Virus record (IMG/VR): IMGVR_UViG_3300025087_000054
Location: 1-64,000 of that record
Direction: 5' to 3' (one strand)
DNA: 64,000 nucleotides
From: a virus
The position numbers and the translations under genes are program-made. The first letter of the stretch is position 1. Every line of letters starts with the position of its first letter. The notes under the pieces were generated by a model. That model worked only from the letters and a program-made list of their open reading frames with translations. It ran no database searches and was not told the DNA's origin. This document shows, piece after piece, positions 5,817-62,175 of the stretch.

Positions 5817-5841
5817 AGTAAGGCAATAAAATTAATATATC

Positions 5842-5884
5842 ACAATTTAAAAAACTTTACAAATCGTTATAGTAATATTATACT
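5842..5884 (+). promoter_or_regulatory. conserved phage promoter motif, copy 1
   Basis: ACAATTTAAAAAACTTTACAAA; TTTACA-17-TATACT. Confidence 0.75.
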
Positions 5885-10385: not shown

Positions 10386-10781
10386 ATGCCAATAGATGTA
10401 TCACAATGGAAATATAAGGAATTTAGATGCCCTATTACGAATAAGTTACTATGTAAATATAAGGGCGTAGACGGGCAGATAGAGAAAAAGCACCCAACAA
10501 AACAGCATACATATTATTTTGGTCCGCTACGTGAGCATAAAGATAATGGACCAAAAGGGGTAAATTTTGCGAGCAGAGCGGTAACGTTGCGATGTCAAAA
10601 TAAAAATTGTGTACAAGTATTGGCAAAAGTTATCGGGTATGATTTAATATTAAAGGTAGATTGTCATAGATGTGGATTTGAGAATAGATTTGATTTAAAG
10701 GATGTACATAAAGAGCGTGTTAGAGTGTTATCGGAAACTAGTAAAAAAATCTATATACAAAGATTAAAGGAATTGTTTTGA
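10386..10781 (+). CDS. tandem zinc-ribbon protein, Mu Com-like
   Basis: FRCPITNKLLCKY...IEKKHP and LRCQNKNCVQVLAKV...LKVDCHRCGFEN resemble two Com-type ribbons. Confidence 0.65.
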   Translation: MPIDVSQWKYKEFRCPITNKLLCKYKGVDGQIEKKHPTKQHTYYFGPLREHKDNGPKGVNFASRAVTLRCQNKNCVQVLAKVIGYDLILKVDCHRCGFENRFDLKDVHKERVRVLSETSKKIYIQRLKELF

Positions 10782-10806
10782 CAATAGATAAAGTATACAG
10801 TAAATT
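10778..10806 (+). promoter_or_regulatory. sigma70-type promoter for head genes
   Basis: TTGACA-17-TAAATT; the -35 contains the TGA stop of the Com-like gene. Confidence 0.7.
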
Positions 10807-10832
10807 TATAGGTGTATAAAAAATTTGTTTGT

Positions 10833-10897
10833 TACGGGCAACTAACCCTGTAGCCTCCAAGAGAGGCCGACTAATATAGATATATAGTTGGTCTTTT
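10833..10897 (+). promoter_or_regulatory. structured leader / putative attenuator
   Basis: Hairpins TACGGG/CCTGTA and GCCTC/GAGGC; the second overlaps terminator-like GGCCGACTA/TAGTTGGTC-TTTT. Confidence 0.6.
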
Positions 10898-10925
10898 ATT
10901 TAATACTAAATAAAAATTTTATCTC

Positions 10926-14382: not shown

Positions 14383-15294
14383 ATGGGAAAAGAAAAATTA
14401 TTGTCCAAGACACTTGGGCAAATCAAAAAAGGATACGGATATGATACCCCTTTGGGTAAATGTCCAATGTATCAGGAAATGAAGAATGTAGCAACAGCTA
14501 GTTCCACTAGTGTGTTGGCGGCTACTACATTAGCAAATGGTGTGGAATCTGTAGTAACAGAGAATATTACTGATCCGTTACATTATAGGAATTTACGTGT
14601 AGTAGGTGGCAGTGCTAAAGTAGCTCAAGTTAATACATTAACGGTAGGTGGTACTTTTGAAGTAGGGGATATATTTTCAGTTACTATTAATGGGCATCAG
14701 GTAGTACACACGGTAGTAACAGAAGATACAGATAACGCTGGTATTGCTACAGCATTAAAAACATTAATAGATGCGTTGGCTGATTCAGCATATACTTGCT
14801 CAAGATCAAGTAATGTATTGACATTAACTGCGGCAGTGGCAGGGGTAGCGTTTACAGTTACCGCAAATAATGCAACTAATGGTGGATCAACTAATGATCA
14901 AACTTTTGTTAAGGTTGAAACTGTTGCCAATGTAGTGGGTACAAATGGTGTTGTAACAATCAAAGGTAGAGACTGGGCAGGAAGACGTATTGCTGAACAA
15001 TTAACTTTGAATGGGGCAACTGTAGTAGTAGGTAATATACCATTTATGAGTGTTTATGAAATTACTTTACCAGCTAGATCAGTATCGGGCGATACCGTGT
15101 CAGTCGGTTGCGGTGATAAATTAGGTTTATATAGACCAATACGAGTTACAGCAGATGTATTAAGTGTAAGATTAGGTGATTATTCAGAGGAAACAATAGC
15201 GGCAGTGGGAGCGTCTTATGGTACAGTAACACCAACAAATGTGCCAAATAATACTAGGGATTATAATGTAAGTTATTTGACTTATTTAGTTTAA
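14383..15294 (+). CDS. virion structural protein (decoration candidate) with inserted beta domain
   Basis: Thr/Val/Ala rich, follows capsid gene; start refined to MGKEK. Confidence 0.6.
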   Translation: MGKEKLLSKTLGQIKKGYGYDTPLGKCPMYQEMKNVATASSTSVLAATTLANGVESVVTENITDPLHYRNLRVVGGSAKVAQVNTLTVGGTFEVGDIFSVTINGHQVVHTVVTEDTDNAGIATALKTLIDALADSAYTCSRSSNVLTLTAAVAGVAFTVTANNATNGGSTNDQTFVKVETVANVVGTNGVVTIKGRDWAGRRIAEQLTLNGATVVVGNIPFMSVYEITLPARSVSGDTVSVGCGDKLGLYRPIRVTADVLSVRLGDYSEETIAAVGASYGTVTPTNVPNNTRDYNVSYLTYLV

Positions 15295-15298
15295 AAAC

Positions 15299-15327
15299 TT
15301 TACTAATGAAGAAAGGCTGGTTATAAT
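15299..15327 (+). promoter_or_regulatory. promoter (variant of conserved motif) overlapping terminator
   Basis: AAAAAC then TTTACT-17-TATAAT. Confidence 0.65.
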
Positions 15328-15343
15328 ACAACCAGCCTTTTTT
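15312..15343 (+). terminator. intrinsic terminator
   Basis: AAAGGCTGGTT-ataatac-AACCAGCCTTT-TTT. Confidence 0.85.
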
Positions 15344-15363
15344 ATTATATAAAAATTTTTATT

Positions 15364-31730: not shown

Positions 31731-33572
31731 ATGAAATCAACAGCAATAGCAGTCAAAGGCCCAGCTTATTTGCAACAGTATAATGATTTGCGGGAGGATG
31801 CCAAAGGAGGTTCATATTTAAGAGCCTTTGCTCAAAATACTCCAAATATGACTGTAAAAATTATGGACGGGCATTGGGTAACGGGTGATGGGGTACTTGT
31901 TGAATGGGCCGAAGGTAATTCGGGTACTATTACAGCACCAATTACGAATGACAGAATAGATTTAATAAGTATGGACGATACAGGAGCTTTAACGATAACA
32001 GCAGGGTCTGAATCGGCTACGCCAGTAGTTCCAGTAGTTCCAGCAGGCGAAATACCATTATGCCAAATATATTTACGTCCTGGATGTACTGAAATATTAG
32101 ATACGGATGATAGTGCAGAGGCATATATAATAGACGCAAGACCTATATTAAGTTTGGGTAGTAGTTTGGAGTTAGGTGAAACTAGTTCAACTGCATATAG
32201 AGGAGACAGGGGTAAGACTGCATATGACCATAGTCAAGTAGTTACAGGGAATCCACATGGTACAAGCAAGACTGATTTGAGTTTAGGTAACGTTACGAAT
32301 GATGCACAGCTTAAAATAGCAAGTAATTTATCAGACTTAGCAAATGTAACTACAGCAAAAACAAATTTAGGGTTAAATAATCTTACAAATGATGCACAAT
32401 TAAAAATTGCATCAAATTTATCTGATTTAGCCAGTGCAACAACTGCTAGAACTAATTTAGGGTTGGGCAATTCAGCAACAAAAGACGTAGGTACAGCTAC
32501 AGGAACAGTGATGGCAGGAGACGATTCAAGAGTAGTAAATGCAGTACCAAATACTAGAACAATAAATAGTAAAGCATTATCTTCAAATATTTCAATTGAT
32601 AAAACTGACGTAGGATTAAGCAATGTAACAAATGATGCACAGCTTAAAATAGCTAGTAATTTATCGGACTTAAATAATGCGGGTACTGCTAGAACTAATT
32701 TAGGTTTGGGGAATGTAAGTAATGATGCCCAATTAAAACGAGCCGCAGGGGATTTTGTGTCATTTACAGAAAAAACTAGTTTAGATGGGGATGATTTATT
32801 TTTAGTTGAAGATAGTGTGGATAGTAACAATAAGAAAAAAATTAAAAAAAGTGTTATTGCTAAAATGACTCAAGCACCCTTGTCAATAGTATTGCCATAT
32901 TATTGTAATGGAACAGGATACATGTGCCCAAGAGCATTAGATTCCATTAGTAAGCTTCCAGGTAGACAGGATAGTAGCGGGGGATTTAGTTTGCACATAA
33001 AAATATATGCAAAAGGTAGTAATTATCAAGATAGAACAGTAACTAGTGATTGGGCATCGGCTACTGACATATATGGCTGGTGTATAATAGGGGATTATGT
33101 ATATGTCTTATTAGTAAATAGTCCTTTTACTGCGTATAGGCTATATAGGTATGCTAAGAATAATTTAGCAGCTGGCGGTACATTAATGCCATATACATTT
33201 GGCACTACCAATGGGAATTCGCATATGTTTACAGATGGTACATATTTATATTTTACGAATAGAGCGGGCTTTACAACAACAAGTTATAACATAAGACAAT
33301 TAACTATTAACGGAACGGCATTAGATTCCGCTGTTGATTTTAGTTTAAGTGATTCACTTGATGTTAGTGGTGGTGTTATTGGAGCAGATTCTTTAAATAT
33401 ATATGCAGTAGGAAGTGGAACATTGTATAAGTATAATTTAAGTGGCGTCGCACAGTGTAATCAATCACTATATGGGTCAAATCCCGCTGGGATGGTTATG
33501 TATACAGATATAGATGCATGCTATATGATGTGTGACGTAAGCCCAGATTTTTTGGCTAGATGTTTAATTTAA
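31731..33572 (+). CDS. tail fibre / receptor-binding protein
   Basis: RIDLI N-terminal module, AYRGDRGKTAYDHSQ and four LGNVTNDAQLK-type repeats, beta-rich C-terminal domain. Confidence 0.85.
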   Translation: MKSTAIAVKGPAYLQQYNDLREDAKGGSYLRAFAQNTPNMTVKIMDGHWVTGDGVLVEWAEGNSGTITAPITNDRIDLISMDDTGALTITAGSESATPVVPVVPAGEIPLCQIYLRPGCTEILDTDDSAEAYIIDARPILSLGSSLELGETSSTAYRGDRGKTAYDHSQVVTGNPHGTSKTDLSLGNVTNDAQLKIASNLSDLANVTTAKTNLGLNNLTNDAQLKIASNLSDLASATTARTNLGLGNSATKDVGTATGTVMAGDDSRVVNAVPNTRTINSKALSSNISIDKTDVGLSNVTNDAQLKIASNLSDLNNAGTARTNLGLGNVSNDAQLKRAAGDFVSFTEKTSLDGDDLFLVEDSVDSNNKKKIKKSVIAKMTQAPLSIVLPYYCNGTGYMCPRALDSISKLPGRQDSSGGFSLHIKIYAKGSNYQDRTVTSDWASATDIYGWCIIGDYVYVLLVNSPFTAYRLYRYAKNNLAAGGTLMPYTFGTTNGNSHMFTDGTYLYFTNRAGFTTTSYNIRQLTINGTALDSAVDFSLSDSLDVSGGVIGADSLNIYAVGSGTLYKYNLSGVAQCNQSLYGSNPAGMVMYTDIDACYMMCDVSPDFLARCLI

Positions 33573-33585
33573 TAATTTATAAATT

Positions 33586-34275
33586 ATGCGACCAATAAGA
33601 AAACCTTTTAATGAAAATTATAGTATCAGCCAATTATTCGGTAAAAATCCACAAATTTATAAACAATTTGGATTAAAAGGACATAACGGATTAGATTATG
33701 CTACTCCAATAGCAACGCACCTGTACGCATTGGGCAAAGGTACTGTTATGGAGACGGGTAATGACCCAAAAGGGTATGGTCATTATATTAGGATAAATTA
33801 TGATGACGGCTTTCAAAGTCTTTATGCTCATTCAGATACAGAGCCAATGGTTAAAAAATATGATAGAGTAATTGAGGATCAGTTTGTTATGTCGTCAGGT
33901 AATAGTGGATTTAGTACAGGGGCACATTTACATTTTGGTATACGTGAATTGGATAGCAATGGCGGGGTGATAAATTACAATAATGGATTTGCGGGCTATA
34001 TTGATCCAAAACCATGGTTAGATAAATATGCTGAATGGGAGCAAAGTCAAATCATACCTGACTGGGCTGAAAACCCAAAAGCAAAAGCTATTGAATCGGG
34101 TATAATTACGAAATGGGATAATCCAAATGCAGATTTAACGGTGGAGGATTGGTGCTGGATATTTTTTAAATTAGGTTGGACAAACGATTTACATAAAATA
34201 ATGAATAGATGCGAAGCGGCAACTATGCTGGATAAGCAAAAAGCGTTTGATAAATTTTTATTATTAAATAAATAA
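33586..34275 (+). CDS. M23 peptidase endolysin
   Basis: HNGLD, YAH, SGNSGFSTGAHLHF. Confidence 0.9.
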   Translation: MRPIRKPFNENYSISQLFGKNPQIYKQFGLKGHNGLDYATPIATHLYALGKGTVMETGNDPKGYGHYIRINYDDGFQSLYAHSDTEPMVKKYDRVIEDQFVMSSGNSGFSTGAHLHFGIRELDSNGGVINYNNGFAGYIDPKPWLDKYAEWEQSQIIPDWAENPKAKAIESGIITKWDNPNADLTVEDWCWIFFKLGWTNDLHKIMNRCEAATMLDKQKAFDKFLLLNK

Positions 34276-34279
34276 TTAT

Positions 34280-34552
34280 ATGGATTTTACAAGTTTATCG
34301 ACTGTACAAGGATTAATAGCGGGGGCTACTTTGGCTATAGTACAAATTTTAAAATGCCTGCTAAAATTTACTGATAAAAAGCAAAAAAAATATTTGCAAT
34401 TATTATCCGTACTAATAGGAGCGTTAATAGGGGTAATTATGGCATACACGGAGGGATGTAACACATGGGAGGGTATGATTATAGGTGTTATGTCAGGGGC
34501 AATGGCAACTGGTGTATATGGGGCAGTAAAAAACCCACTTAAAAAAGATTAG
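34280..34552 (+). CDS. holin
   Basis: 90 aa, 3 TM, G..SG..ATG.Y, next to endolysin. Confidence 0.8.
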   Translation: MDFTSLSTVQGLIAGATLAIVQILKCLLKFTDKKQKKYLQLLSVLIGALIGVIMAYTEGCNTWEGMIIGVMSGAMATGVYGAVKNPLKKD

Positions 34553-34554
34553 AT

Positions 34555-34583
34555 TTGACGTATGTATAAAGTTAATTTATAAT
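34555..34583 (+). promoter_or_regulatory. sigma70-type promoter
   Basis: TTGACG-17-TATAAT. Confidence 0.8.
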
Positions 34584-34587
34584 AAAT

Positions 34588-34651
34588 ATGCTCATCGGTT
34601 CACAAACGTAAAGGTTAGTAAAAAGGCTCGGCAGTAATGCTAAGCCTTTTT
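34588..34651 (+). ncRNA. candidate small RNA antisense to recA translation start
   Basis: Bounded by promoter and terminator; segments complementary to 34689-34718. Confidence 0.6.
34620..34651 (+). terminator. intrinsic terminator
   Basis: AAAAAGGCT-c-GGCA-gtaa-TGCT-a-AGCCTTTTT. Confidence 0.85.
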
Positions 34652-34653
34652 AT

Positions 34654-34682
34654 TTTACTTTTGTAAAAGTCGCCATTATAAT
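34654..34682 (+). promoter_or_regulatory. recA promoter
   Basis: TTTACT-17-TATAAT directly after terminator. Confidence 0.7.
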
Positions 34683-34711
34683 AATCGCTACTTAACCTTA
34701 ACTTTTTACGT

Positions 34712-36712
34712 ATGAGCAAAAAATTTGCCCAGCTATTGTCTGGGCTACAAAAAAAGTATGGGCAAGGATCAGTCGAGCTTTATTCCGAAATGGATAGGGC
34801 GGATGTTACTCGTATCTCGACAGGCTTGCCATCAGTAGATTTTATTTTAGGAGGGGGCTTGCCAGAGGGGAGGATAATTGAGATCTATGGCCCCGAAAGT
34901 TCAGGCAAAACGAGTTTGTCGATTATGTTTTTAGCACAGGTACAAAAAAAATATCCTAAAAGCGGAGTAGCATTTATTGATGTAGAACATGCACTCGATC
35001 CAGATTACGCACAGCAATTAGGATTAAATATGGATGAACTAATACTAAGCCAACCAGATAGTGCGGAACAGGCTTTAAATATTATGAATGAGTTAGCGGC
35101 ATCGGGCGAAATCAAAGCCATAATATTGGATTCAGTTGCCAAATTAGTCCCACGAAAGGAGGTGGAGGGCGAGGTAGGAGACGCCGAAATGGCAATGAGA
35201 GCTAGATTAATGGGGCAAGCATTACGTAAAATAGTCCCGAATGCAGATAAAAATAAATGTACGTGTTTTTTTATTAATCAAGTACGTAATAGTGTAGGGA
35301 TAACCTATGGGTGTCATCACGCAGATAATATTATTTATTTTGATGATGGACGAAAAATTAAAATCAGGGATGTGGTCAATAAAAAAATAGTTGGTAATAT
35401 TATAGCTTGGGATGAAAAAACTAATAAATATGTAACAGCACCCATAATAAATTGGTTTAATAATGGTAAAATAACCGATAAGTCTGAATGGATAACTATA
35501 CGTATGGAGGGTATTGATAGTACAAATGGTGTAAATGCCATAACGGTTACAAAAAATCATAAATTATTGACACAACGTGGTTGGGTTGAGGCTCAAAATA
35601 TTATAATTACAGATAAAATACATGCATGTATTAATGATAGATTACAAGGCACTTTAGCTAAACAATTTATGTATGGGGTATCTGTTGGGGATAGCTCAAT
35701 TAGAACAACAGGAAAAAATAAGTTTTTATTAAAACTACAGGATATTAAAAACAAGGATTATGTGTATTGGAAAGCAGATAAGCTACACATATTAGGATTT
35801 GATACTACTATAAAAAATAAAAAAAGACTTATAAGTCGTAGTGGGCATGATCTAGCTAATTTTAATTATCAACGTAATCCTATGGACATTATCGATAAGT
35901 TAGATTGGTTAGGTTTTGCAATATGGTTAATGGACGATGGGCATTTAGATTTAGATAATTATCATTGTAGATATGCGTTATCTATAGGTCGGCTAAAGGA
36001 TGATAAGGACGCACTAAGAAAAATAGTACAATCATTTACAGAGAGTTTTAAAATAACACCAGAATTACGGAAAGATGGTTTATTAATTTTTTCAGCAAAA
36101 GATTCTCGTAAAATTGCCCAGCATATATGTACATATATACCAGATAGTATGCAGTATAAGTTACCAGTTCAGTTTAGGGGTAGATATATTGATTTTAATT
36201 TGGAGACTGCAAGTATAAAAAAAGAGTATTTTACTAGTATTATATCTATAGATACGAATAGTGCACGTAAGTATAGGAATAAAGATAAATATGATATTGA
36301 GGTAAAAGATTATCATAATTATATATGTGATGGTATTGTAGTGCATAACTCACCAGAATTGAGACCTGGCGGGCGGGCATTGCCTTTTGATGCAAGTGTG
36401 ATATTACGTACAAGTTTTAAGCAAACAACAGATGAAAAAATTGGTGAAACAAAAATAATGGTTAAAAAAAATAAGGTAGGTAAACCGTTTCGATCAACAA
36501 CAGTACAGATTGAATACGGTAAAGGATTTAATGTACTACAGGATACGATTACAATGGCATTGACTGCTAAGGTAATTACGCAAAAAGGAGCTTTTTATTA
36601 CTTTGGCGATAAGCAATGGCAAGGCCAAGACGCAGTAAGACAAGCGATTGCAGATGATCCAAAGCTTGCAAAAGATATTATTGAGATTATACATAACTCA
36701 ATAGTTACATAA
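34712..36712 (+). CDS. recA: RecA recombinase, intein-containing (mature ~320 aa)
   Basis: GGGLPEGRIIEIYGPESSGKT, FIDVEHALD, DSVA, ARLMGQALRK, KNKV. Confidence 0.95.
   Translation: MSKKFAQLLSGLQKKYGQGSVELYSEMDRADVTRISTGLPSVDFILGGGLPEGRIIEIYGPESSGKTSLSIMFLAQVQKKYPKSGVAFIDVEHALDPDYAQQLGLNMDELILSQPDSAEQALNIMNELAASGEIKAIILDSVAKLVPRKEVEGEVGDAEMAMRARLMGQALRKIVPNADKNKCTCFFINQVRNSVGITYGCHHADNIIYFDDGRKIKIRDVVNKKIVGNIIAWDEKTNKYVTAPIINWFNNGKITDKSEWITIRMEGIDSTNGVNAITVTKNHKLLTQRGWVEAQNIIITDKIHACINDRLQGTLAKQFMYGVSVGDSSIRTTGKNKFLLKLQDIKNKDYVYWKADKLHILGFDTTIKNKKRLISRSGHDLANFNYQRNPMDIIDKLDWLGFAIWLMDDGHLDLDNYHCRYALSIGRLKDDKDALRKIVQSFTESFKITPELRKDGLLIFSAKDSRKIAQHICTYIPDSMQYKLPVQFRGRYIDFNLETASIKKEYFTSIISIDTNSARKYRNKDKYDIEVKDYHNYICDGIVVHNSPELRPGGRALPFDASVILRTSFKQTTDEKIGETKIMVKKNKVGKPFRSTTVQIEYGKGFNVLQDTITMALTAKVITQKGAFYYFGDKQWQGQDAVRQAIADDPKLAKDIIEIIHNSIVT
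35312..36349 (+). mobile_element. intein with LAGLIDADG endonuclease (346 aa) in RecA
   Basis: VGITYG|CHHAD...VVHN|SPE; GVSVGDSS and IWLMDDG motifs. Confidence 0.93.
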
Positions 36713-36717
36713 AAAGG

Positions 36718-36759
36718 ACAAGCATAAAAACTTTACAAAACCTACAAAACATATATACT
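36718..36759 (+). promoter_or_regulatory. conserved promoter motif copy 2
   Basis: ACAAGCATAAAAACTTTACAAA; TTTACA-16-TATACT. Confidence 0.8.
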
Positions 36760-36788
36760 GACATTGTATCAATAATTTTTATATTGGC

Positions 36789-37166: not shown

Positions 37167-37424
37167 ATGAGTACAATTATCCCAGATAGGGAGTACACAT
37201 TACAGGAAATAATCAACGAGGGAATAATCCCTTGTGTTGAAACGCATCCTGTAATTTATAATTTAATTACAAAAAAAGATAAAGTAGGTAAACGCCTGCC
37301 TGTAATTAAAACTAATAAGACGCAAATAAAGCCTATTGTCTATAGTAGACCAGGAGCAAAAATAGTGGGACAGTATAAAGTATTAGGTAACGAAATACTT
37401 AAATTTTTACAATTTAATCAATAA
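37167..37424 (+). CDS. putative small DNA-binding protein
   Basis: YTLQEI...YKV.G.EILKFL excisionase-like pattern. Confidence 0.45.
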   Translation: MSTIIPDREYTLQEIINEGIIPCVETHPVIYNLITKKDKVGKRLPVIKTNKTQIKPIVYSRPGAKIVGQYKVLGNEILKFLQFNQ

Positions 37425-37434
37425 TATTTTTAAT

Positions 37435-37983
37435 ATGCCGATAGACAAAAAAAGTGCTGATGAGGCACATGTTATTAAAGGTCGCTATTTTGATTCAAAA
37501 GGTATGGAGCAGGCCTTTATATTATCAAATATAATTAATATGCAATATGATACCTGGAAAGCAGGTAATGCAAATATAATAAGCTTTAAAGGATGCCAAA
37601 AAATTGCCGATAAACTACAGATTATAATTATAGATAAACCAGAATGGATACAAGTTCCAGATGAGACTAATCTAATGAATCATATTGTTCAGATAAATAT
37701 GGGGTATATAGATAGTCCAACACATCAGGTTTTTGTTATGGGTGAGGCAAGTAGATTAAATACAGGTAAGTTTGAGGAGGATCGCAAGACAGGTAAAATA
37801 TCATATAAAGAACGAGGCATAATTGACGCTCAATATAGAGCGAGTATGGCATGGAAACGAGCTTTTTGTAAGGGTGTCCTTGAACTTACTGGACTACGGG
37901 ATAAATTTTATGCCGAGGACGAGTCAACAAGTTTTGCACCACCTGTACAACAGGACGGTACATTAGATTATAATAATCTTTAA
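37435..37983 (+). CDS. putative ssDNA-annealing protein
   Basis: GEAS..N, MAWKRA...VL.L.G....YAEDE motif; near recA. Confidence 0.5.
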   Translation: MPIDKKSADEAHVIKGRYFDSKGMEQAFILSNIINMQYDTWKAGNANIISFKGCQKIADKLQIIIIDKPEWIQVPDETNLMNHIVQINMGYIDSPTHQVFVMGEASRLNTGKFEEDRKTGKISYKERGIIDAQYRASMAWKRAFCKGVLELTGLRDKFYAEDESTSFAPPVQQDGTLDYNNL

Positions 37984-37994
37984 TCTTTATTTTT

Positions 37995-38624
37995 ATGGCT
38001 GAACAAATTGCTACTAGCACAAAACCAATACCAACATTTAAGGATATTATTAACGAAACAGAAAAGTTTGTAGATACTTTATATGATAAAACCTATAAGG
38101 TTAATGAGCTATTATCTGAAATTGAGTTAATATATGACGACATGCGAGGATTGGGTGCTTCGGGATTATCATTTTCAGATTTTACGCCAGATGATTTATC
38201 ACGAATGGCAGGTAAATTAAGTGTATTACGATCAAGTTTAATACCATTACGAGCAAGAGCTTGGCGTAATTTAAGTAAAGCAAATAAATTTATTGATTTA
38301 AGGAGAGCGGGGTTACAGCATAAACTGAAAGAGACTCTGGAAACATTGCATGGCAAGACAACAAGAGACGAGGTTAATGCCGAATTAGATAGACAATTAG
38401 TACGAGCTACTTTTACGGCAGACTTGCATAAGGAGATGTATGAAAAATTACAAAGTTATTGGTATGGTATACCAGATCAGTTAAAAATGATTCAATTAAG
38501 GATTAATGTAATTAGGGGTGATTCAGATACAATACACTTTCAGCAACATTTAAGTGATAACGATGATGTGCCATATCAAAGTTCAAATGAGTTTGATTTT
38601 GAGATAGATGACAGTATAAAATAA
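37995..38624 (+). CDS. helical protein, possible UvsY-like recombination mediator
   Basis: Coiled-coil, position. Confidence 0.35.
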   Translation: MAEQIATSTKPIPTFKDIINETEKFVDTLYDKTYKVNELLSEIELIYDDMRGLGASGLSFSDFTPDDLSRMAGKLSVLRSSLIPLRARAWRNLSKANKFIDLRRAGLQHKLKETLETLHGKTTRDEVNAELDRQLVRATFTADLHKEMYEKLQSYWYGIPDQLKMIQLRINVIRGDSDTIHFQQHLSDNDDVPYQSSNEFDFEIDDSIK

Positions 38625-38645
38625 GTCAATAAAAATGGCTTAATA

Positions 38646-38687
38646 ACAAGCTAAAAAACTTTACAAATTGATTATAGGATATATAAT
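38646..38687 (+). promoter_or_regulatory. conserved promoter motif copy 3
   Basis: ACAAGCTAAAAAACTTTACAAAT; TTTACA-16-TATAAT. Confidence 0.85.
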
Positions 38688-38726
38688 CAAGACATAAAAA
38701 TTATTTAATAATTAAATTATTCGTTT

Positions 38727-39797
38727 ATGAGCAACGAGCTATTTACTTTGGGCAAAGTATCTTGCCCTATTAATCCAGGTACCGACCCTACTTGGATAAA
38801 AGAGCTAGTCCCATCAGGTATCAATTATGTGATGGAGGGCGAGCAGGATCAGGATTTTACAACGCATGTATTATTGGGTGCAAAAACAAATCGCAATGTT
38901 TTATTAGTAGGCCCAAAAGGTACTGGTAAAACTACTTGTATAGCATATCTTGCACAGCAAACGAACAATCCATTACAGATTATTCAGTTAAATGGGGCAA
39001 CAGGTATTGATTCATTTGTAGGTAAATGGCTTTTACGAGATGGGCAAACTTATTGGGTGGATGGCCCACTAGCATTAGCAATACGTAATGGCTATTGGTT
39101 ATTGTTAGACGAACTAAATATGGCTTTACCTGAAATACTTGCCGTATTACAACCAGTATTAGACGATAGACGAATATTATATATGGAGGAAAAAGGTGGT
39201 GATAAGGCTGAATTTATTAAAGCACATCCTAATTTTAGGTGTTTTGCGGCCATTAATCCAACTGAGGATTATGCTGGCACAAAGGAGATGAATAGGGCTT
39301 TGGAGGATAGATTTAGTATTAATCTTGAGTTAGCATATCCAAGTGCACGCAAAGAACGTGAGATATTATTAACTAATCCCGCAATTAAGATTGATGATAA
39401 ACCAATACAGAGTAAAACAGGTATAATAAGTCGTATAGTACAAGTAGCAAATGAGCTACGTAAATTATATAAAGACCAGCAATTTGCTTATGAGATAAGT
39501 ACTCGTAATCTTATTGACTGGGCGATAATGTGTGAGTTTGTTACAATTAAAGATGCCTATAAAATGACTTGGCAAAATAAAATAGATAAAGATGAGCGAG
39601 TAATAGCTAATGATAATATTAATAAATTATTTGCAGATAACGAAAGTTGGGGTACGGGTATGGCACTTAAAAAAGCGTTTACACGCCCAACAAAAGAGAC
39701 TGAAAATATAGATTTGGAATCTATAGATATGGGAGCTGGTATAGCACAAGATACTCTTATAGATACTGTTACAATACCAACAGAAACGATTGAATAA
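38727..39797 (+). CDS. MoxR-type AAA+ ATPase (CbbQ/NirQ/CobS-like)
   Basis: GPKGTGKT, LLLDELN, HPNFR.FAA.NP..YAGTKEMN.AL.DRF, ISTR. Confidence 0.92.
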   Translation: MSNELFTLGKVSCPINPGTDPTWIKELVPSGINYVMEGEQDQDFTTHVLLGAKTNRNVLLVGPKGTGKTTCIAYLAQQTNNPLQIIQLNGATGIDSFVGKWLLRDGQTYWVDGPLALAIRNGYWLLLDELNMALPEILAVLQPVLDDRRILYMEEKGGDKAEFIKAHPNFRCFAAINPTEDYAGTKEMNRALEDRFSINLELAYPSARKEREILLTNPAIKIDDKPIQSKTGIISRIVQVANELRKLYKDQQFAYEISTRNLIDWAIMCEFVTIKDAYKMTWQNKIDKDERVIANDNINKLFADNESWGTGMALKKAFTRPTKETENIDLESIDMGAGIAQDTLIDTVTIPTETIE

Positions 39798-42683: not shown

Positions 42684-42710
42684 ATTTTTTATTTACTAAC
42701 TTTTACTTTT

Positions 42711-43493
42711 ATGGATATGGCCATAATGCAGGTGGACGACACACAAGTCCAAATCACTCCCGAATTTGCTAATGCAGTGCAGGAGTATAAACTTAAAAAA
42801 GACGAGGTTATGCAGGACTTTATTGTCGGCGTAGCTGAGTTAGGTTCAATTTTAGCAAAACACCGACAAGTTATGAAACAAGAACGTAATTGGTTGGATT
42901 ATTGTTCAGCTATTGGGTTAAGTGTAGCGTCAGCAAATCAACAAATAAGATTATTTGAATATAAAAAGGAACTATCAGATCAAAAAGCAAAAGCTTTAAC
43001 GACAGTTATTACTAATTGGTCAAAATTAAATGCTTTTTTAACGTTACCAAATCCAAGTAAGGACGAATTATTGGAGGATGAGGCACTTACCGAGGATACA
43101 AGTAATCAGGATTTTAGGGATAAGGTAGTATCAGTCAAGCCAGTGGATGCTGTTGAGGAACTAGTAGACGAACAAAATATAGACGAGGTAGCCGAAGCCG
43201 ATCCTGAGGATGAACAGATAATGTTTGACGCTTTAAAACACATGATGGATTCAGATTTACAGGACGAAAATATTTTATTAGATAACCCAAAAGAGACTGC
43301 GAAAAAAATACAGACTGAATATAAAATGGGGGTACACTTACGCGGGTATTTTGAAGGGATAATACATGTACAAAAAGGCTTAACGTTACTCAATGACACT
43401 ACAAAATTAAATAGACTAGATAGATCAAGATTAATGCCTTTATTACAAGAACAACTTGATTTATTGAACAAACTTATTGCACAATATAAGTAG
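42711..43493 (+). CDS. hypothetical protein (DUF3102-like N-terminus)
   Basis: ELG.IL...R...W..YC..IG.S...A...IRL. Confidence 0.5.
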   Translation: MDMAIMQVDDTQVQITPEFANAVQEYKLKKDEVMQDFIVGVAELGSILAKHRQVMKQERNWLDYCSAIGLSVASANQQIRLFEYKKELSDQKAKALTTVITNWSKLNAFLTLPNPSKDELLEDEALTEDTSNQDFRDKVVSVKPVDAVEELVDEQNIDEVAEADPEDEQIMFDALKHMMDSDLQDENILLDNPKETAKKIQTEYKMGVHLRGYFEGIIHVQKGLTLLNDTTKLNRLDRSRLMPLLQEQLDLLNKLIAQYK

Positions 43494-46678: not shown

Positions 46679-48514
46679 ATGAACCAGATTGAGCAATATC
46701 TTGTGGATAAGGGGTTGGAATACCGTGCAATTAATAATCAGTTTAATGTTAAATGTCCATTTTGTTTGGACGGAAAATGGAATCATTGCTATTTGAGTGA
46801 TGTTACTGGTGTGTGGTATTGTCAAAAATGTTCGGGCAAAGGATCGTTTAATGAGTTTCGTAAGTTGTTTAATGACGAACCGATTAACGTACCAGAACAG
46901 GCAACTGTAGTCCAGGAAAAGGAGTTTAAATTGATAGAGTATAAAACAGTACAAAATTATGCACAAAGTCTTTGGAGTTTTGGCGATAAAATTTTAGAAT
47001 ATTTGCGTGTAAAACGAGGGTTACAGGATAAAACTATTAAGCATTTTATGTTGGGTTGTGATGGGCATGATATAACGATACCGCTTATAGATTCAGAGCA
47101 GGTTGTGGTTAATGTTAGGCGTAGAAAAGACCCGTTTATGGAAACGGAAGGCCCAAGGTATTATTCAGAAAAGGGTTGTAAAGCTATTTTGTTTAATGAG
47201 CAAGTGTTAAAATACAATCCAAAAAGTATTTTTATAACGGAAGGGGAGATGGATGCCATGGTATTATGGCAGATGGGGGTTACAAATGTAGTATCAGTAA
47301 CACAAGGTGCTAATTATTTTTCAGAGCATTGGGTGGATTTGTTTAATAATGTGAGTAAAATTTATATAGTATTTGATTCTGATGTGCCAGGGCAGAAAGG
47401 GGCATTAAAAGTTGCCGCTAAGTTGGGTAAAGATAAGTGTAGATTAGTTGAGTTACCAAATAGTGAAAATGGAGAAAAATGTGATGTAACAAATTATGTT
47501 GTAGATCAAAAACATACGAAGGAAGATTTTTTAGCTTTAGTTGATAAAGCCAGATTACCTGTTGCAGATGTAGATGCGGTTAAACACATATCAGAATATA
47601 ACGAGCAATTGCTACAAAGATTGCTTACTGGCGGCTATAAGGGATTGTCTACAGGATTGGCAGAGTTGGATGCAATAATAGGCGGATATAGATCGGGTAG
47701 ATTGATTATATTATCGGGACTTACGAGCGTGGGAAAAACTACTTTTTCGGTAAATTTATCGTTACAATTATTAAGTAAGCAGTTCCCGATGCTGTTTATA
47801 TCAATGGAAATGCCCCCGATAGACATATATAAAAAGTTTTTAATGTTGCGAAAAAAATTAATGGGATATGCATTAGATGGTTTGACAGAAACATCGCCCG
47901 AGATGAAAATATTGCAGGAAGGTATTGCGGAATTTACAGGAGAGAATGCGTTGCCATTATATGTTTGCAGTAAGACAGGAGAGATAAAATTAGAATCAAT
48001 ACTTGATATAGCACGAGTAGCGAAAGAGAATTACGGCGTTCAGGTGGTTGTAATAGATCATCTACATTATTTTGGGCATGTTACAAATAATAGGGCATCG
48101 GAATTATCAGATGTGGTGCGAAAAATTAAAGCTATTGCTATGGAGTTGGATATTACAGTATTATTACTAGCACACTTGAATAGAGGAGGTAGAACACAAC
48201 AACGAAGAGGTATGTACGTGCCAAGTTTATCTGATTTAAAGGATACATCAGCAATAGAACAGGATGCCGATCAGGTTATATTTGTTTGTCGGGATTCAGA
48301 GGCAACGGACGAAGACACAAAACGAAAAACAGTAGTAAAGGTTGCTAAGAATAGAGACGGTAAAACAGGGCATTTCAGTATGGATTTTGATTTAAATACT
48401 GGGGTATTATCAACAATAGCGGGAGTAGATTATTTAGAAGAAAAAAAGAGTAAATTTAATAAAGTATCTGATAGGGAAGAGGGTACTATGGATATGCCAA
48501 TTATTAATTTTTAA
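46679..48514 (+). CDS. primase-helicase (zinc finger, TOPRIM, DnaB-like)
   Basis: CPFC..C..C, ITEGEMDA, FDSD..G, GLTSVGKT, IDHLH, IEQDAD, KNRDG. Confidence 0.93.
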   Translation: MNQIEQYLVDKGLEYRAINNQFNVKCPFCLDGKWNHCYLSDVTGVWYCQKCSGKGSFNEFRKLFNDEPINVPEQATVVQEKEFKLIEYKTVQNYAQSLWSFGDKILEYLRVKRGLQDKTIKHFMLGCDGHDITIPLIDSEQVVVNVRRRKDPFMETEGPRYYSEKGCKAILFNEQVLKYNPKSIFITEGEMDAMVLWQMGVTNVVSVTQGANYFSEHWVDLFNNVSKIYIVFDSDVPGQKGALKVAAKLGKDKCRLVELPNSENGEKCDVTNYVVDQKHTKEDFLALVDKARLPVADVDAVKHISEYNEQLLQRLLTGGYKGLSTGLAELDAIIGGYRSGRLIILSGLTSVGKTTFSVNLSLQLLSKQFPMLFISMEMPPIDIYKKFLMLRKKLMGYALDGLTETSPEMKILQEGIAEFTGENALPLYVCSKTGEIKLESILDIARVAKENYGVQVVVIDHLHYFGHVTNNRASELSDVVRKIKAIAMELDITVLLLAHLNRGGRTQQRRGMYVPSLSDLKDTSAIEQDADQVIFVCRDSEATDEDTKRKTVVKVAKNRDGKTGHFSMDFDLNTGVLSTIAGVDYLEEKKSKFNKVSDREEGTMDMPIINF

Positions 48515-48517
48515 GCC

Positions 48518-49189
48518 ATGAGTTTATTAGTAACAAATGCTCAAGCATCTCGTTATCTTGATGACGTTATGTATAGTTATTTAGATAAGATTAGGGTTAA
48601 TGAGATTAAGGTTGTTGCGTTAAATGCAAGACAAGTACGATTAATACGTAATAAAATATTGGATGATGCTAATGTACAGTATTGGTTTGAGGATAGTAGG
48701 GGTAAAAAGTACACTATGGCGGCGTATGCAGTAGAGCGAGATTCTGTTCAGGCGGAATGTTTATATACAGGTGATTTGTTGGTGGATATAACAGAAAGTT
48801 TAAAAACAAATACATTGCTACCAATGTGGCAGTTGGCACGAGGTAACGTATCAGATTACAAGTTATTATTCAGTATACAATTGGCAATATCGAATGAGGT
48901 ACTGGTTACTATGCCAAATAATTTTTTTTCGTGTAGTAAGAAAGAAGAAAAAATAAATAAATTGTTTAAAATATTGGGTAATTATATGGGGGGACTTGTA
49001 ACAGGTTATATGGAATATGTAGTACAATATCCGCACAAATTTGTAGTACAAAGTTTGAGAGTGGGTAGCATATCGTTTGATGTTCAATTAGATGTGCATG
49101 AGCTTATAAATAACGCTAAACGAATAATACGACACAATAGTATGAGGGTAGTAACAAGTAAAAAAACTTTACAAATACAAAAACAATAA
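48518..49189 (+). CDS. hypothetical protein
   Basis: ORF packing. Confidence 0.6.
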   Translation: MSLLVTNAQASRYLDDVMYSYLDKIRVNEIKVVALNARQVRLIRNKILDDANVQYWFEDSRGKKYTMAAYAVERDSVQAECLYTGDLLVDITESLKTNTLLPMWQLARGNVSDYKLLFSIQLAISNEVLVTMPNNFFSCSKKEEKINKLFKILGNYMGGLVTGYMEYVVQYPHKFVVQSLRVGSISFDVQLDVHELINNAKRIIRHNSMRVVTSKKTLQIQKQ

Positions 49190-49195
49190 TATAAT
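49154..49195 (+). promoter_or_regulatory. conserved promoter motif copy 4
   Basis: ACAAGTAAAAAAACTTTACAAAT; TTTACA-16-TATAAT, inside 3' end of upstream CDS. Confidence 0.8.
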
Positions 49196-52104: not shown

Positions 52105-52116
52105 TTTTAAATAAGA

Positions 52117-52158
52117 TCAAGCCCAAAAACTTTACAAATTATAATTAAAATATATAAT
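52117..52158 (+). promoter_or_regulatory. conserved promoter motif copy 5
   Basis: TCAAGCCCAAAAACTTTACAAAT; TTTACA-16-TATAAT. Confidence 0.8.
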
Positions 52159-56413: not shown

Positions 56414-56425
56414 TATTTATTTAGA

Positions 56426-56467
56426 ACAAGCTAAAAAACTTTACAAATAGTAAGCATACTATATAAT
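56426..56467 (+). promoter_or_regulatory. conserved promoter motif copy 6
   Basis: ACAAGCTAAAAAACTTTACAAAT; TTTACA-16-TATAAT. Confidence 0.85.
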
Positions 56468-58244: not shown

Positions 58245-58261
58245 TATAAATGTATAGTAAA

Positions 58262-58304
58262 AAGAGTCAAAAAACTTTACAAAGTTACGCTTAAACTATA
58301 AAAT
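58262..58304 (+). promoter_or_regulatory. conserved promoter motif copy 7
   Basis: AGTCAAAAAACTTTACAAA; TTTACA-17-TAAAAT. Confidence 0.75.
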
Positions 58305-58986: not shown

Positions 58987-59028
58987 AATGCATTTTACGA
59001 TTTATATATAAAATACTTTAGCAAAAGG

Positions 59029-59071
59029 ACAAGCTAAAAAACTTTACAAATCTAAATCCTTTATATATAAT
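59029..59071 (+). promoter_or_regulatory. conserved promoter motif copy 8
   Basis: ACAAGCTAAAAAACTTTACAAAT; TTTACA-17-TATAAT. Confidence 0.85.
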
Positions 59072-59100: not shown

Positions 59101-59742
59101 ATGAACTTAATGAGTAAACATAAGATTACTTTAGTCTTATTTAAGAAGAAATTTGATTATAATGATTATGAATTATGTGCATTAATGAAGCACAGGTCAG
59201 AATTATCTGAGGACGAATTTAGTCAAGGGGTATTAGGATTGGTAAAAAGAGCGTGTGAGTTTTATGAGGGGAGCGACTCATTTTATGATAATGTAGAAGA
59301 AGGGGCGTTGGATGATTTATGTATTGAAATTTATGATATACAAGGTAAGGATACCCACTCAAAAGGTAATTATTCGCCAGAGGTGTTTTTAGAAGATGTA
59401 GGGTTAGATGAAGAGTCGTATTCGTTTTTCGGTGATGGCATACCAGCGGAAATTTTATATGATAGTATTAGTGTATATAGGGGGAAAAATTTACCGAAAA
59501 TAGAAGATGGAGGTGTTATGGTAGATTCAGTAGTTCATTATAAAATTTTGGATATGCAGTTAGTTCAGACATTTGATTTAGACGAGATTTTTAGTGTAAA
59601 TAATATAATGGAACGTATAGAAAAGAAGGTAGCTAAGGTTCAGGGTAGTCTATTGGAAAAGCATTTAGTAGGTGTAGTTAAAAGGAGTTATAAGGTAAAA
59701 CATAAAATTGTTAAGAATCAAGTCAAAAAACTTTACAAATAG
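59101..59742 (+). CDS. acidic hypothetical protein
   Basis: ORF after promoter. Confidence 0.6.
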   Translation: MNLMSKHKITLVLFKKKFDYNDYELCALMKHRSELSEDEFSQGVLGLVKRACEFYEGSDSFYDNVEEGALDDLCIEIYDIQGKDTHSKGNYSPEVFLEDVGLDEESYSFFGDGIPAEILYDSISVYRGKNLPKIEDGGVMVDSVVHYKILDMQLVQTFDLDEIFSVNNIMERIEKKVAKVQGSLLEKHLVGVVKRSYKVKHKIVKNQVKKLYK

Positions 59743-59759
59743 CAAAAAGGTTATAGTAT
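59718..59759 (+). promoter_or_regulatory. conserved promoter motif copy 9
   Basis: TCAAGTCAAAAAACTTTACAAAT; TTTACA-16-TAGTAT. Confidence 0.75.
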
Positions 59760-59783
59760 AAAAGTACAAATTAAAAATAGTAT

Positions 59784-61798: not shown

Positions 61799-62143
61799 AT
61801 GTTATCCAAAGATAAAATCAGGGAGTTGATAGGTAAGGGGTTTAAGGATTTATACCAGAATCTGTATACGAGTAGTTTTACTATAACTCATGTACAAGAT
61901 TGGGCGATTTATACTTTAAAATTGCCTTACGATATAGTGTCAATTGATAGGTTATGTAAAGAAAAAGGATACACTAATTGGGTACGAATAGTGTCGAGAC
62001 TATATTGGGAAATTACATCATCAATAGATACAGGATTAATAGATACTGGTAATGAGAATATAGATAGTGATAATAGTGTTTTATTTTATAACCACGGTGA
62101 GATTAATTTATTGGAACAGGATTTAGTAGGTAAACAAGTTTAA
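61799..62143 (+). CDS. hypothetical protein
   Basis: ORF packing. Confidence 0.55.
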   Translation: MLSKDKIRELIGKGFKDLYQNLYTSSFTITHVQDWAIYTLKLPYDIVSIDRLCKEKGYTNWVRIVSRLYWEITSSIDTGLIDTGNENIDSDNSVLFYNHGEINLLEQDLVGKQV

Positions 62144-62175
62144 AAACTTTACAAATAGTATAAAGATACTATACT
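62134..62175 (+). promoter_or_regulatory. conserved promoter motif copy 10
   Basis: ACAAGTTTAAAAACTTTACAAAT; TTTACA-16-TATACT. Confidence 0.8.

Follow-up and report, generated by a model that had tools for sequence, protein, structure and literature searches.

Putative 3'-UTR-type small RNA complementary to the recA start region in an uncultured groundwater phage

The 159-nt spacer between the holin gene and recA of an uncultured groundwater phage carries on its plus strand a promoter, a free arm and a terminator, which together are probably the anatomy of a discrete small RNA (sRNA) of about 62–67 nt. The phage is represented by a 74,893-bp virus record (IMG/VR IMGVR_UViG_3300025087_000054), of which positions 1–64,000 form the stretch analysed here (the window). 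The complementarity of the arm to the recA start region is unusual and significant against shuffled sequences. We tentatively favour, at somewhat less than an even chance, an sRNA of the 3' untranslated region (3' UTR) type that would occlude start codons in trans and would also lock read-through transcripts in cis.

The spacer RNA and its complementarity to the recA start

Promoter P1 (TTGACG-17-TATAAT, 34555..34583, plus strand), a σ70-type sequence matching the consensus at 11 of 12 positions, adjoins the holin stop codon (34550–52), and the element studied is the holin 3' UTR. The predicted P1 start at about 34588–34591 falls at the 5' boundary of the complementary stretch. From there the putative sRNA would run through a free 5' arm (34588..34619, plus strand), which contains UGCUCAU (34589–95), ACGUA (34606–10) and AAGGUUAG, with AAGGUUA at 34611–17, into an intrinsic terminator (34620..34656, plus strand). 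The terminator hairpin (34620–51) has a 12+4 bp stem with one bulge and a GUAA loop and is directly followed by a U-tract, the tail reading UUUUUAUUUU; a simple terminator scan passed it over because the stem is bulged. The predicted 67-nt RNA folds into about 27 free nucleotides and a hairpin of −19.7 kcal/mol (z −4.05), the arm being unpaired in the centroid fold. A second promoter, P2 (TTTACT-17-TATAAT, 34654..34682, plus strand, 10/12 match), overlaps the terminator U-tract, and in its predicted transcript the recA leader would be about 22 nt long. Both promoters, the hairpin and the pairing segments had been placed by a first-pass annotation made from the sequence alone, and all were found again on re-reading. 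No Rfam family matched anywhere in the window at its gathering score; below threshold, ctRNA_p42d aligned with the terminator hairpin alone (26.7 bits against a gathering score of 50).

Consensus promoters are evidently in use in this phage, since the strong matches are intergenic and most fall into one family. Sequences matching the σ70 consensus at 11 or more of 12 positions occur nine times in 75 kb, P1 included (shuffles give 3.7), and each lies in an intergenic spacer, though such spacers account for only 5.4% of the DNA; seven of these matches belong to a family of the form CAAGC-N2-3-AAAAACTTTACAAA-N16-TATAAT. The AAAAACTTTACAAA box is absent from P1 and P2, neither of which is among the 16 listed family copies, and we regard P1 as a credible promoter outside this family.

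The target of the arm is the recA leader with the AUG and four further nucleotides (CUUAACCUUAACUUUUUACGUAUGAGCA, 34690..34718, plus strand), which holds UAACCUU (34693–99), UACGU (34707–11) and AUGAGCA (34712–18). The arm (34589–34619) and this target (34690–34718) lie on the same strand and pair in four blocks. The duplex of arm 34588–34619 with the recA leader reaches −19.4 kcal/mol, whereas dinucleotide-shuffled arms give −9.8 ± 2.5 (z about −3.8); this energy was attained by 5 of 2000 shuffled arms and 0 of 2000 shuffled leaders, and by 2 of 1000 in a repeat run. When accessibility was included, binding was −12.7 compared with −7.15 ± 2.1, and 4 of 400 shuffles did as well. Each start region was also paired with its own upstream 140 nt; here recA ranked second of 113 (−20.8, mean −10.0 ± 3.1), and the sole case above it is a doubtful start within another open reading frame (ORF). 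All energies were computed at 37°C; the aquifer is colder, and pairing would be favoured there.

The spacer also holds an anti-start copy that the first-pass annotation had overlooked. This copy 1 (ACGUAUGUAUAAAGUUAAU, 34558..34576, plus strand) lies inside the P1 spacer and pairs with 34697–34715 through 8+8 bp including two G·U pairs (−15.4 kcal/mol; reached by 6 of 1000 shuffles). Because two pairs are G·U, the match exists only in plus-strand RNA, and since copy 1 is upstream of the P1 start it would be present only in transcripts from the late operon. The predicted P2 transcript lacks both copies. A motif defined after the copies were seen, ACGTA-N0-7-AARGTTA, occurs four times in 150 kb (both strands), and three of these copies, two direct and one inverted, are in the spacer. 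They cluster on the two promoters (P1 spacer, P1 +17 and P2 +4 to +22) and the motif is almost absent from the rest of the genome, as would be expected if the copies were DNA operators through which a phage or host regulator controls P1 and P2. However, the half-motifs are 5, 0 and about 2 nt apart, an unevenness which fits RNA pairing better than a protein operator. Moreover, copy 1 matches through G·U pairs that are mismatches at the DNA level, the UGCUCAU/AUGAGCA block belongs to one pair only, and no such site is found at any other promoter. We consider operators very improbable.

Scarcely more probable is a regulated leader, in which P1 would be a conditionally terminated recA promoter, acting through attenuation at a mini-ORF or through antitermination like that of lambda PR'-tR', with the leader complementarity incidental or auxiliary. 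Antitermination classically acts on short terminated transcripts that precede genes, and a second promoter with a terminated leader precedes gene 10926. The arm can indeed be read as a leaderless 7-codon ORF (ATG at 34588, MLIGSQT, then TAA; 34588..34611, plus strand), as the first-pass annotation had noted, a reading from the sequence that drew no further support. Its stop codon (34609–11) ends 9 nt before the stem, and a ribosome halted there would sit at the 5' base of the terminator. Against this, neither the minimum free energy (MFE) fold nor the centroid of 34590–34656 contains a competing antiterminator helix and the terminator stays intact; P2 makes read-through from P1 needless, and in RNA that reads through from P1 the recA start is predicted to be closed to translation. 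A factor resembling Q or N did not turn up, no search aimed at one having been made.

The pairing of arm and leader can also form within one transcript. In a 132-nt read-through RNA the arm closes on the recA leader (MFE −41.3 kcal/mol, z −6.2), and P2 (34654–82) sits between the two. In computed folds the start region is unpaired with a probability of 0.76 and the AUG of 0.40 in the P2 transcript, compared with 0.28–0.40 and 0.014–0.05 in the read-through transcript; 4–10 of 300 shuffled arms close the recA start equally well. Both an sRNA acting in trans and a fold-back in cis are thus thermodynamically plausible.

We infer the transcription starts of P1 and P2, the transcript ends, RNA–RNA pairing in vivo, its effect and its timing from the sequence, the folds, the statistics and one relative, in the following way. 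The late (lysis) operon would carry the anti-start sequences in its 3' UTR, and this UTR would double as an sRNA gene. Transcription from P1 would begin at about 34590 and end at about 34652–56, giving an RNA of roughly 62–67 nt with its first 27–30 nt free, then the hairpin and a U-tail. The same terminator would end the late operon, and late mRNAs that stop there would therefore all carry both anti-start copies at their 3' end as well. The free arm would pair segmentally with the AU-rich leader and AUG of recA and, less well, with the starts of genes 37435, 37995 and MoxR and of some replication genes. Because 30S binding in the absence of Shine-Dalgarno (SD) sites needs an open leader, such pairing should block initiation. 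Action in trans would fall on mRNAs from P2 or the family promoters, which carry no arm, and in the few transcripts that pass the terminator the same pairing would silence recA in cis.

A lock acting in cis only, of the type known from T4 genes e, soc, 49 and I-TevI, would have leaked late or P1 transcripts fold back on the recA start while the P2 RNA is translated. This mechanism is documented for T4 (PMC3014915), the two arms flank P2, the fold energies and AUG accessibilities given above agree with it, and copy 1 can work only on late-operon transcripts. We nevertheless hold it to be quite unlikely. The strong terminator between the arms leaves little read-through to be expected, P1 would be without a role, and the multi-target pattern described below would go unexplained; furthermore, the corresponding sequence in the relative G003 matches starts 1.3–2.5 kb away and not recA, which is awkward for a local hairpin. 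Given the terminator between the arms, the lack of any purpose for P1 in a lock confined to cis and the distant targets in G003, we favour action in trans by an sRNA and by the 3' end of the late mRNA, and take the fold-back in cis for a by-product or backup.

Predicted targets and related phages

At a cut-off of −15 kcal/mol or lower the arm matches 11 start regions, while 250 shuffles average 1.1 ± 1.0 and reach 5 at most. No match is left when the arm is reversed, its complement has two and its reverse complement none, and 240 natural segments match at most four each. Among 873 intergenic segments the arm is the best anti-start-region 32-mer, also when recA is excluded. Cofolding with accessibility over 113 starts ranked the primase-helicase gene at 46679 first, 71459 second, 42711 third and recA fourth, followed by 37435 (fifth), 37995 (sixth) and MoxR (tenth). 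Comparison with all starts and with shuffles therefore bears out in part the view of the first-pass annotation that recA is the target: the pairing with recA beats shuffles, but recA is fourth of 113 once accessibility is counted.

Downstream of recA follow four small unknown genes, MoxR (38727–39797) and a vWA/CobT protein gene (assigned by PHROGs). The predicted secondary targets in this block are the start regions of a 182-aa gene (37435..37463, plus strand), a 209-aa gene (37995; 37979..38002, plus strand) and MoxR (CGUUUAUGAGCA, 38710..38739, plus strand). Pairing with the MoxR start, which had been pointed out before, does exist but ranks only 6–10 of 113. Of the six genes that run from recA to MoxR, four rank among the first ten targets (hypergeometric p 4e-4; Mann–Whitney U test (MWU) p 0.008). 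The preference for this block was stronger for the real arm (dE −2.98) than for shuffled arms (−1.05 ± 0.68), none of 28 reaching it, and three other terminator-bearing spacers tested showed no preference for the recA–MoxR block. Predicted targets were also enriched, on post hoc inspection, in the 34.7–50.7 kb module (p 0.017), and a late-versus-early bias among them was not significant (p 0.23).

The strongest single duplex of the arm is with the leader 42684–42721 (UUACUAACUUUUACUU) of an unknown 260-aa gene that comes after a PD-(D/E)XK nuclease gene. At −22.6 kcal/mol it beats recA, with 14 Watson–Crick pairs and one G·U pair over 16 positions against arm 34606–34621.

Relatives were found as 24 IMG/VR contigs at 56–72% identity in a capsid-protein alignment, five of which carry recA; the nearest RecA proteins (P0003, P0005, P0006, P0008 and P0010) are 60–72% identical. 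INPHARED, searched with near and distant DNA and with the holin and RecA proteins, gave nothing useful; holin and endolysin queries found no relatives in IMG/VR, and a scan of genome contigs with the capsid alignment gave nothing. Scans with the RecA N-extein returned generic RecA only, at no more than 55% identity among the matches listed. In the five recA-bearing relatives, pairing of the recA start with upstream sequence was not significant (p 0.17, 0.27, 0.03 inside an ORF, 0.58 and 0.39), and we conclude that recA-specific pairing is not conserved.

One relative, G003, is collinear with the phage over two stretches, the virion module and the segment from recA to MoxR. Ahead of recA in G003 lies a small ORF whose 3' UTR ends in a hairpin and U8, 25 nt before the AUG; the terminated RNA predicted here has the same position upstream of recA and a non-homologous sequence. 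The top anti-start segment among 669 intergenic segments of G003 falls in that UTR (chance about 0.045), and its hit count was reached by 0 of 120 shuffles. The best predicted targets of the G003 RNA are the orthologues of 37435, 37995 and MoxR, at ranks 1, 2 and 4–5 of 67 (MWU p for the block 0.003–0.009; 0 of 50 shuffles reach it). With the 37435 orthologue it forms a 12-bp duplex, CCAUUGCUAUUG over GCAAUGG, which covers the AUG. Complementarity to recA in relatives, which the earlier reading would lead one to expect, was thus not borne out, as the equivalent RNA of G003 matches genes just downstream and not recA. Position and target block are kept while the sequences differ, which suggests a parallel arrangement; this is the sole comparative support and comes from one genome.

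G003 has about 23 kb of other genes (C1:3843–27080) where the phage has only the endolysin and holin genes (33573–34711). Since these 23 kb lie between the tail fibre gene and recA of G003, the spacer studied here would be a module junction.

Several results weigh against a dedicated sRNA aimed at start codons. recA is not the top trans target, being second by duplex energy and fourth of 113 by cofolding. A perfect antisense of the recA leader matches six other start regions, and the promiscuity of the arm would thus arise in part because it is antisense to the relatively GC-containing recA start region. The start regions of the recA–MoxR block are somewhat 'sticky' to shuffled RNAs too, the block and module enrichments were both noticed post hoc, and the gene starts are our own crude ORF calls. 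Any 32-mer set against the next 130 nt gives 492 genomic loci at −16 or lower; with so many equal-energy duplexes genome-wide, the signal is the location of the pairing and not its size. A homologue of the spacer was found in 0 of 14 related contigs, and four more distant relatives (G008, G014, G017 and G024) have no comparable unit and a different gene order: recA is not beside the 37167–37995 block in them, and no terminated unit precedes either. In G003, recA is not a predicted target (p 0.17; rank 37–48 of 67) and no convincing promoter was found before the RNA. Finally, the record probably lacks about one quarter of the genome and, with it, the same share of potential RNA targets.

These points could be read as a functionless spacer, that is, a plain late terminator and recA promoter in which the repeats are a neutral relic of a local duplication or inversion and P1 is fortuitous or its product inert. 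The spacer does lie at a module boundary, as the 23-kb insertion in G003 indicates, it is conserved in no relative, duplexes of equal energy are common genome-wide and part of the P1 −35 hexamer comes from copy 1. On the other hand, three motif copies are found within 159 nt, the pairing has p of about 0.002–0.03 across several designs, the other strong consensus promoters are all intergenic and evidently real, and G003 offers a parallel. Such a relic appears to us rather unlikely. Of the earlier proposal of a same-strand sRNA or a cis fold-back on recA, we retain the anatomy, the significant complementarity and the thermodynamic plausibility of both modes; recA as the unique or foremost target is given up.

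Comparison with known RNA regulators

The arrangement had been described as not recognisable as a named system, which is roughly right; the nearest named ones are 3'-UTR-derived sRNAs, T4 gene e-type hairpins and c4 of phages P1 and P7. Bacterial 3'-UTR-derived sRNAs such as DapZ and MicL share the terminator of an mRNA and may have their own promoter. Like them, the spacer element lies directly 3' of a stop codon, uses the operon terminator as its 3' hairpin, has a 5'-proximal seed and may have a dual origin, from its own promoter or from the parent mRNA. It differs in that its promoter follows the stop codon and is not within the coding sequence, in its phage and not chromosomal origin, and in a seed that aims at the AUG and AU-rich leader and not at an SD region.

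In the long transcripts of T4 genes e, soc, 49 and I-TevI, the start codon is sequestered by a segment 5' of it, and a promoter between the arms gives short transcripts without the 5' arm, which are translated (PMC3014915). The geometry of arm, P2 and recA leader agrees with this, and the start codon is sequestered in silico. Here, however, a strong terminator sits within a loop of about 70 nt, the upstream copy is present twice, and the 5' arm has its own consensus promoter and also matches other gene starts.

The c4 antisense RNA of phages P1 and P7 is about 70 nt long, is transcribed from the same strand upstream of its target and blocks translation by segmental pairing at the ribosome-binding region (Citron and Schuster 1990 via PMC8201110; review PMC12197685). 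The spacer RNA likewise would be a same-strand RNA 5' of its target that pairs in segments with a start region. In c4 the pairing regions are hairpin loops, the RNA is processed out of an operon transcript and its target is an antirepressor, whereas the spacer RNA would pair through a linear, free 5' arm, has a promoter and terminator of its own and is predicted to target recombination and replication genes. In addition, the phage studied here and its host are without SD sites. Rfam C4 (RF01695) had no match in the window at its gathering score, nor at E ≤10 in 34450–34800. Because of this, and because the pairing region is a free arm and not a set of loops, we place the spacer RNA outside the C4 family. 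Overall its anatomy resembles a 3'-UTR-type sRNA with its own promoter, its cis aspect would be T4 gene e-like and its logic appears closest to c4.

To our knowledge, few phage RNAs control translation of the phage's own genes. The textbook cases (c4, sar, oop and P4 CI) all come from SD-using hosts. If the favoured reading of a start-masking sRNA holds, a phage of an SD-scarce host that probably uses genetic code 25 would gate its recombination and replication operon via a 3'-UTR-type sRNA that masks the AUG and AU-rich leader. The G003 parallel, with differing RNA and target sequences, suggests that such a system could be found by position and complementarity, and not by homology. If only a cis lock or a relic is present, the arrangement would be ordinary. 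More generally, SD-less, TGA-recoded phages of Absconditabacteria or Gracilibacteria might keep a dedicated anti-start RNA gene at the junction of late operon and recA, fluid in sequence and co-evolving with the leaders and start codons from recA to MoxR, as a switch that shuts off translation in place of SD-based control; we regard this extension as quite unlikely.

Genomic setting and the phage promoter family

The window has a G+C content of 34% and all its ORFs are on the plus strand. The source DNA was found only in DNA metagenomes from groundwater and soil (seven runs). Assemblies X4 and X6 contain the same DNA in 97,505-bp contigs, so that the record probably covers some three quarters of the genome, and CheckV-style completeness of relatives points to genomes of about 97–120 kb. 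Contigs from four metagenome assemblies were identical, with no variants and no joints. An invertible promoter switch was considered and rejected, as the arms are gapped and imperfect, spaced by about 70 bp and present in one orientation in the four assemblies (a weak point, as contigs only were compared). A minus-strand gene was likewise rejected, all genes being on the plus strand and a minus-strand promoter being absent.

The gene context given earlier, holin, recA and MoxR, was upheld by PHROGs. A tail fibre gene (31731–33572, plus strand) is followed after 13 nt by an M23 endolysin gene (33586–34275, plus strand) and after a further 4 nt by the holin gene (34280..34552, plus strand; phrog_1299, E 3e-13), the final gene of the late structural and lysis block. 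The 666-aa recA product (34712..36712, plus strand) matches the UvsX-like/RecA PHROG at E 7e-71. It contains an intein at about residues 200–560, with a LAGLIDADG homing endonuclease at residues 319–486 (PHROGs). Its start codon at 34712 is backed by RecA homologues that align from residue 1–3. The source gene call for recA (P0001, 640 aa) begins 26 codons late. The RecA proteins of the five relatives are 317–345 aa long, all without an intein.

No SD sequence was found before any of 114 ORFs, whose leaders are AU-rich; the claim of a genome without such sites therefore stands. Absconditabacteria are SD-scarce (PMC10783764), which agrees with the missing sites, and genes readable under two codes have been described for some phages of Gracilibacteria and Absconditabacteria (PMC10746230). 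In this phage no in-frame TGA was found and 9 of 114 ORFs end in TGA, each with a TAA or TAG 1–18 codons further on, a pattern that would allow correct reading under either genetic code. G003 uses genetic code 25, and its recA (L180:1123–2076, minus strand) has 17–18 in-frame TGA codons, all at conserved RecA glycines. The host of the phage is likely a code-25 bacterium of the candidate phyla.

All 16 copies of the promoter family CAAGC-N2-3-AAAAACTTTACAAA-N16-TATAAT are on the plus strand, almost all 49–70 nt 5' of a gene start and with leaders of 25–35 nt. The family 14-mer has 10 exact copies in the window, a count that no shuffle attains. Copies lie at 5841–5863, 36717–36760, 38645–38687, 49153–49195, 52116–52158, 56425–56467, 58261–58300, 59028–59071, 59717–59760 and 62133–62175 (plus strand), with more beyond 64 kb. 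Searching IMG/VR with the promoter-box pattern gave single matches only, probably by chance, and the relatives G014 and G017 have a similar box, AAAAACTTG(A/C)CAAAA.

The second unit with a promoter and a terminated leader lies at 10778–10925, before gene 10926. Its promoter (TTGACA-17-TAAATT) overlaps the stop codon of a Com-like zinc-ribbon gene. Two hairpins come next, then a terminator-like hairpin and its U-tract, 30 nt from gene 10926; pairing between this leader and the start of that gene is unremarkable. At 15293–15352, a terminator hairpin (AAAAACTTTACTAA..GGCTGGTTATAATACAACCAGCC-T6) holds a promoter −10 hexamer in its loop or stem. In this design one element would end the upstream transcript and start the next, and it is also seen before recA in G008 and G003.

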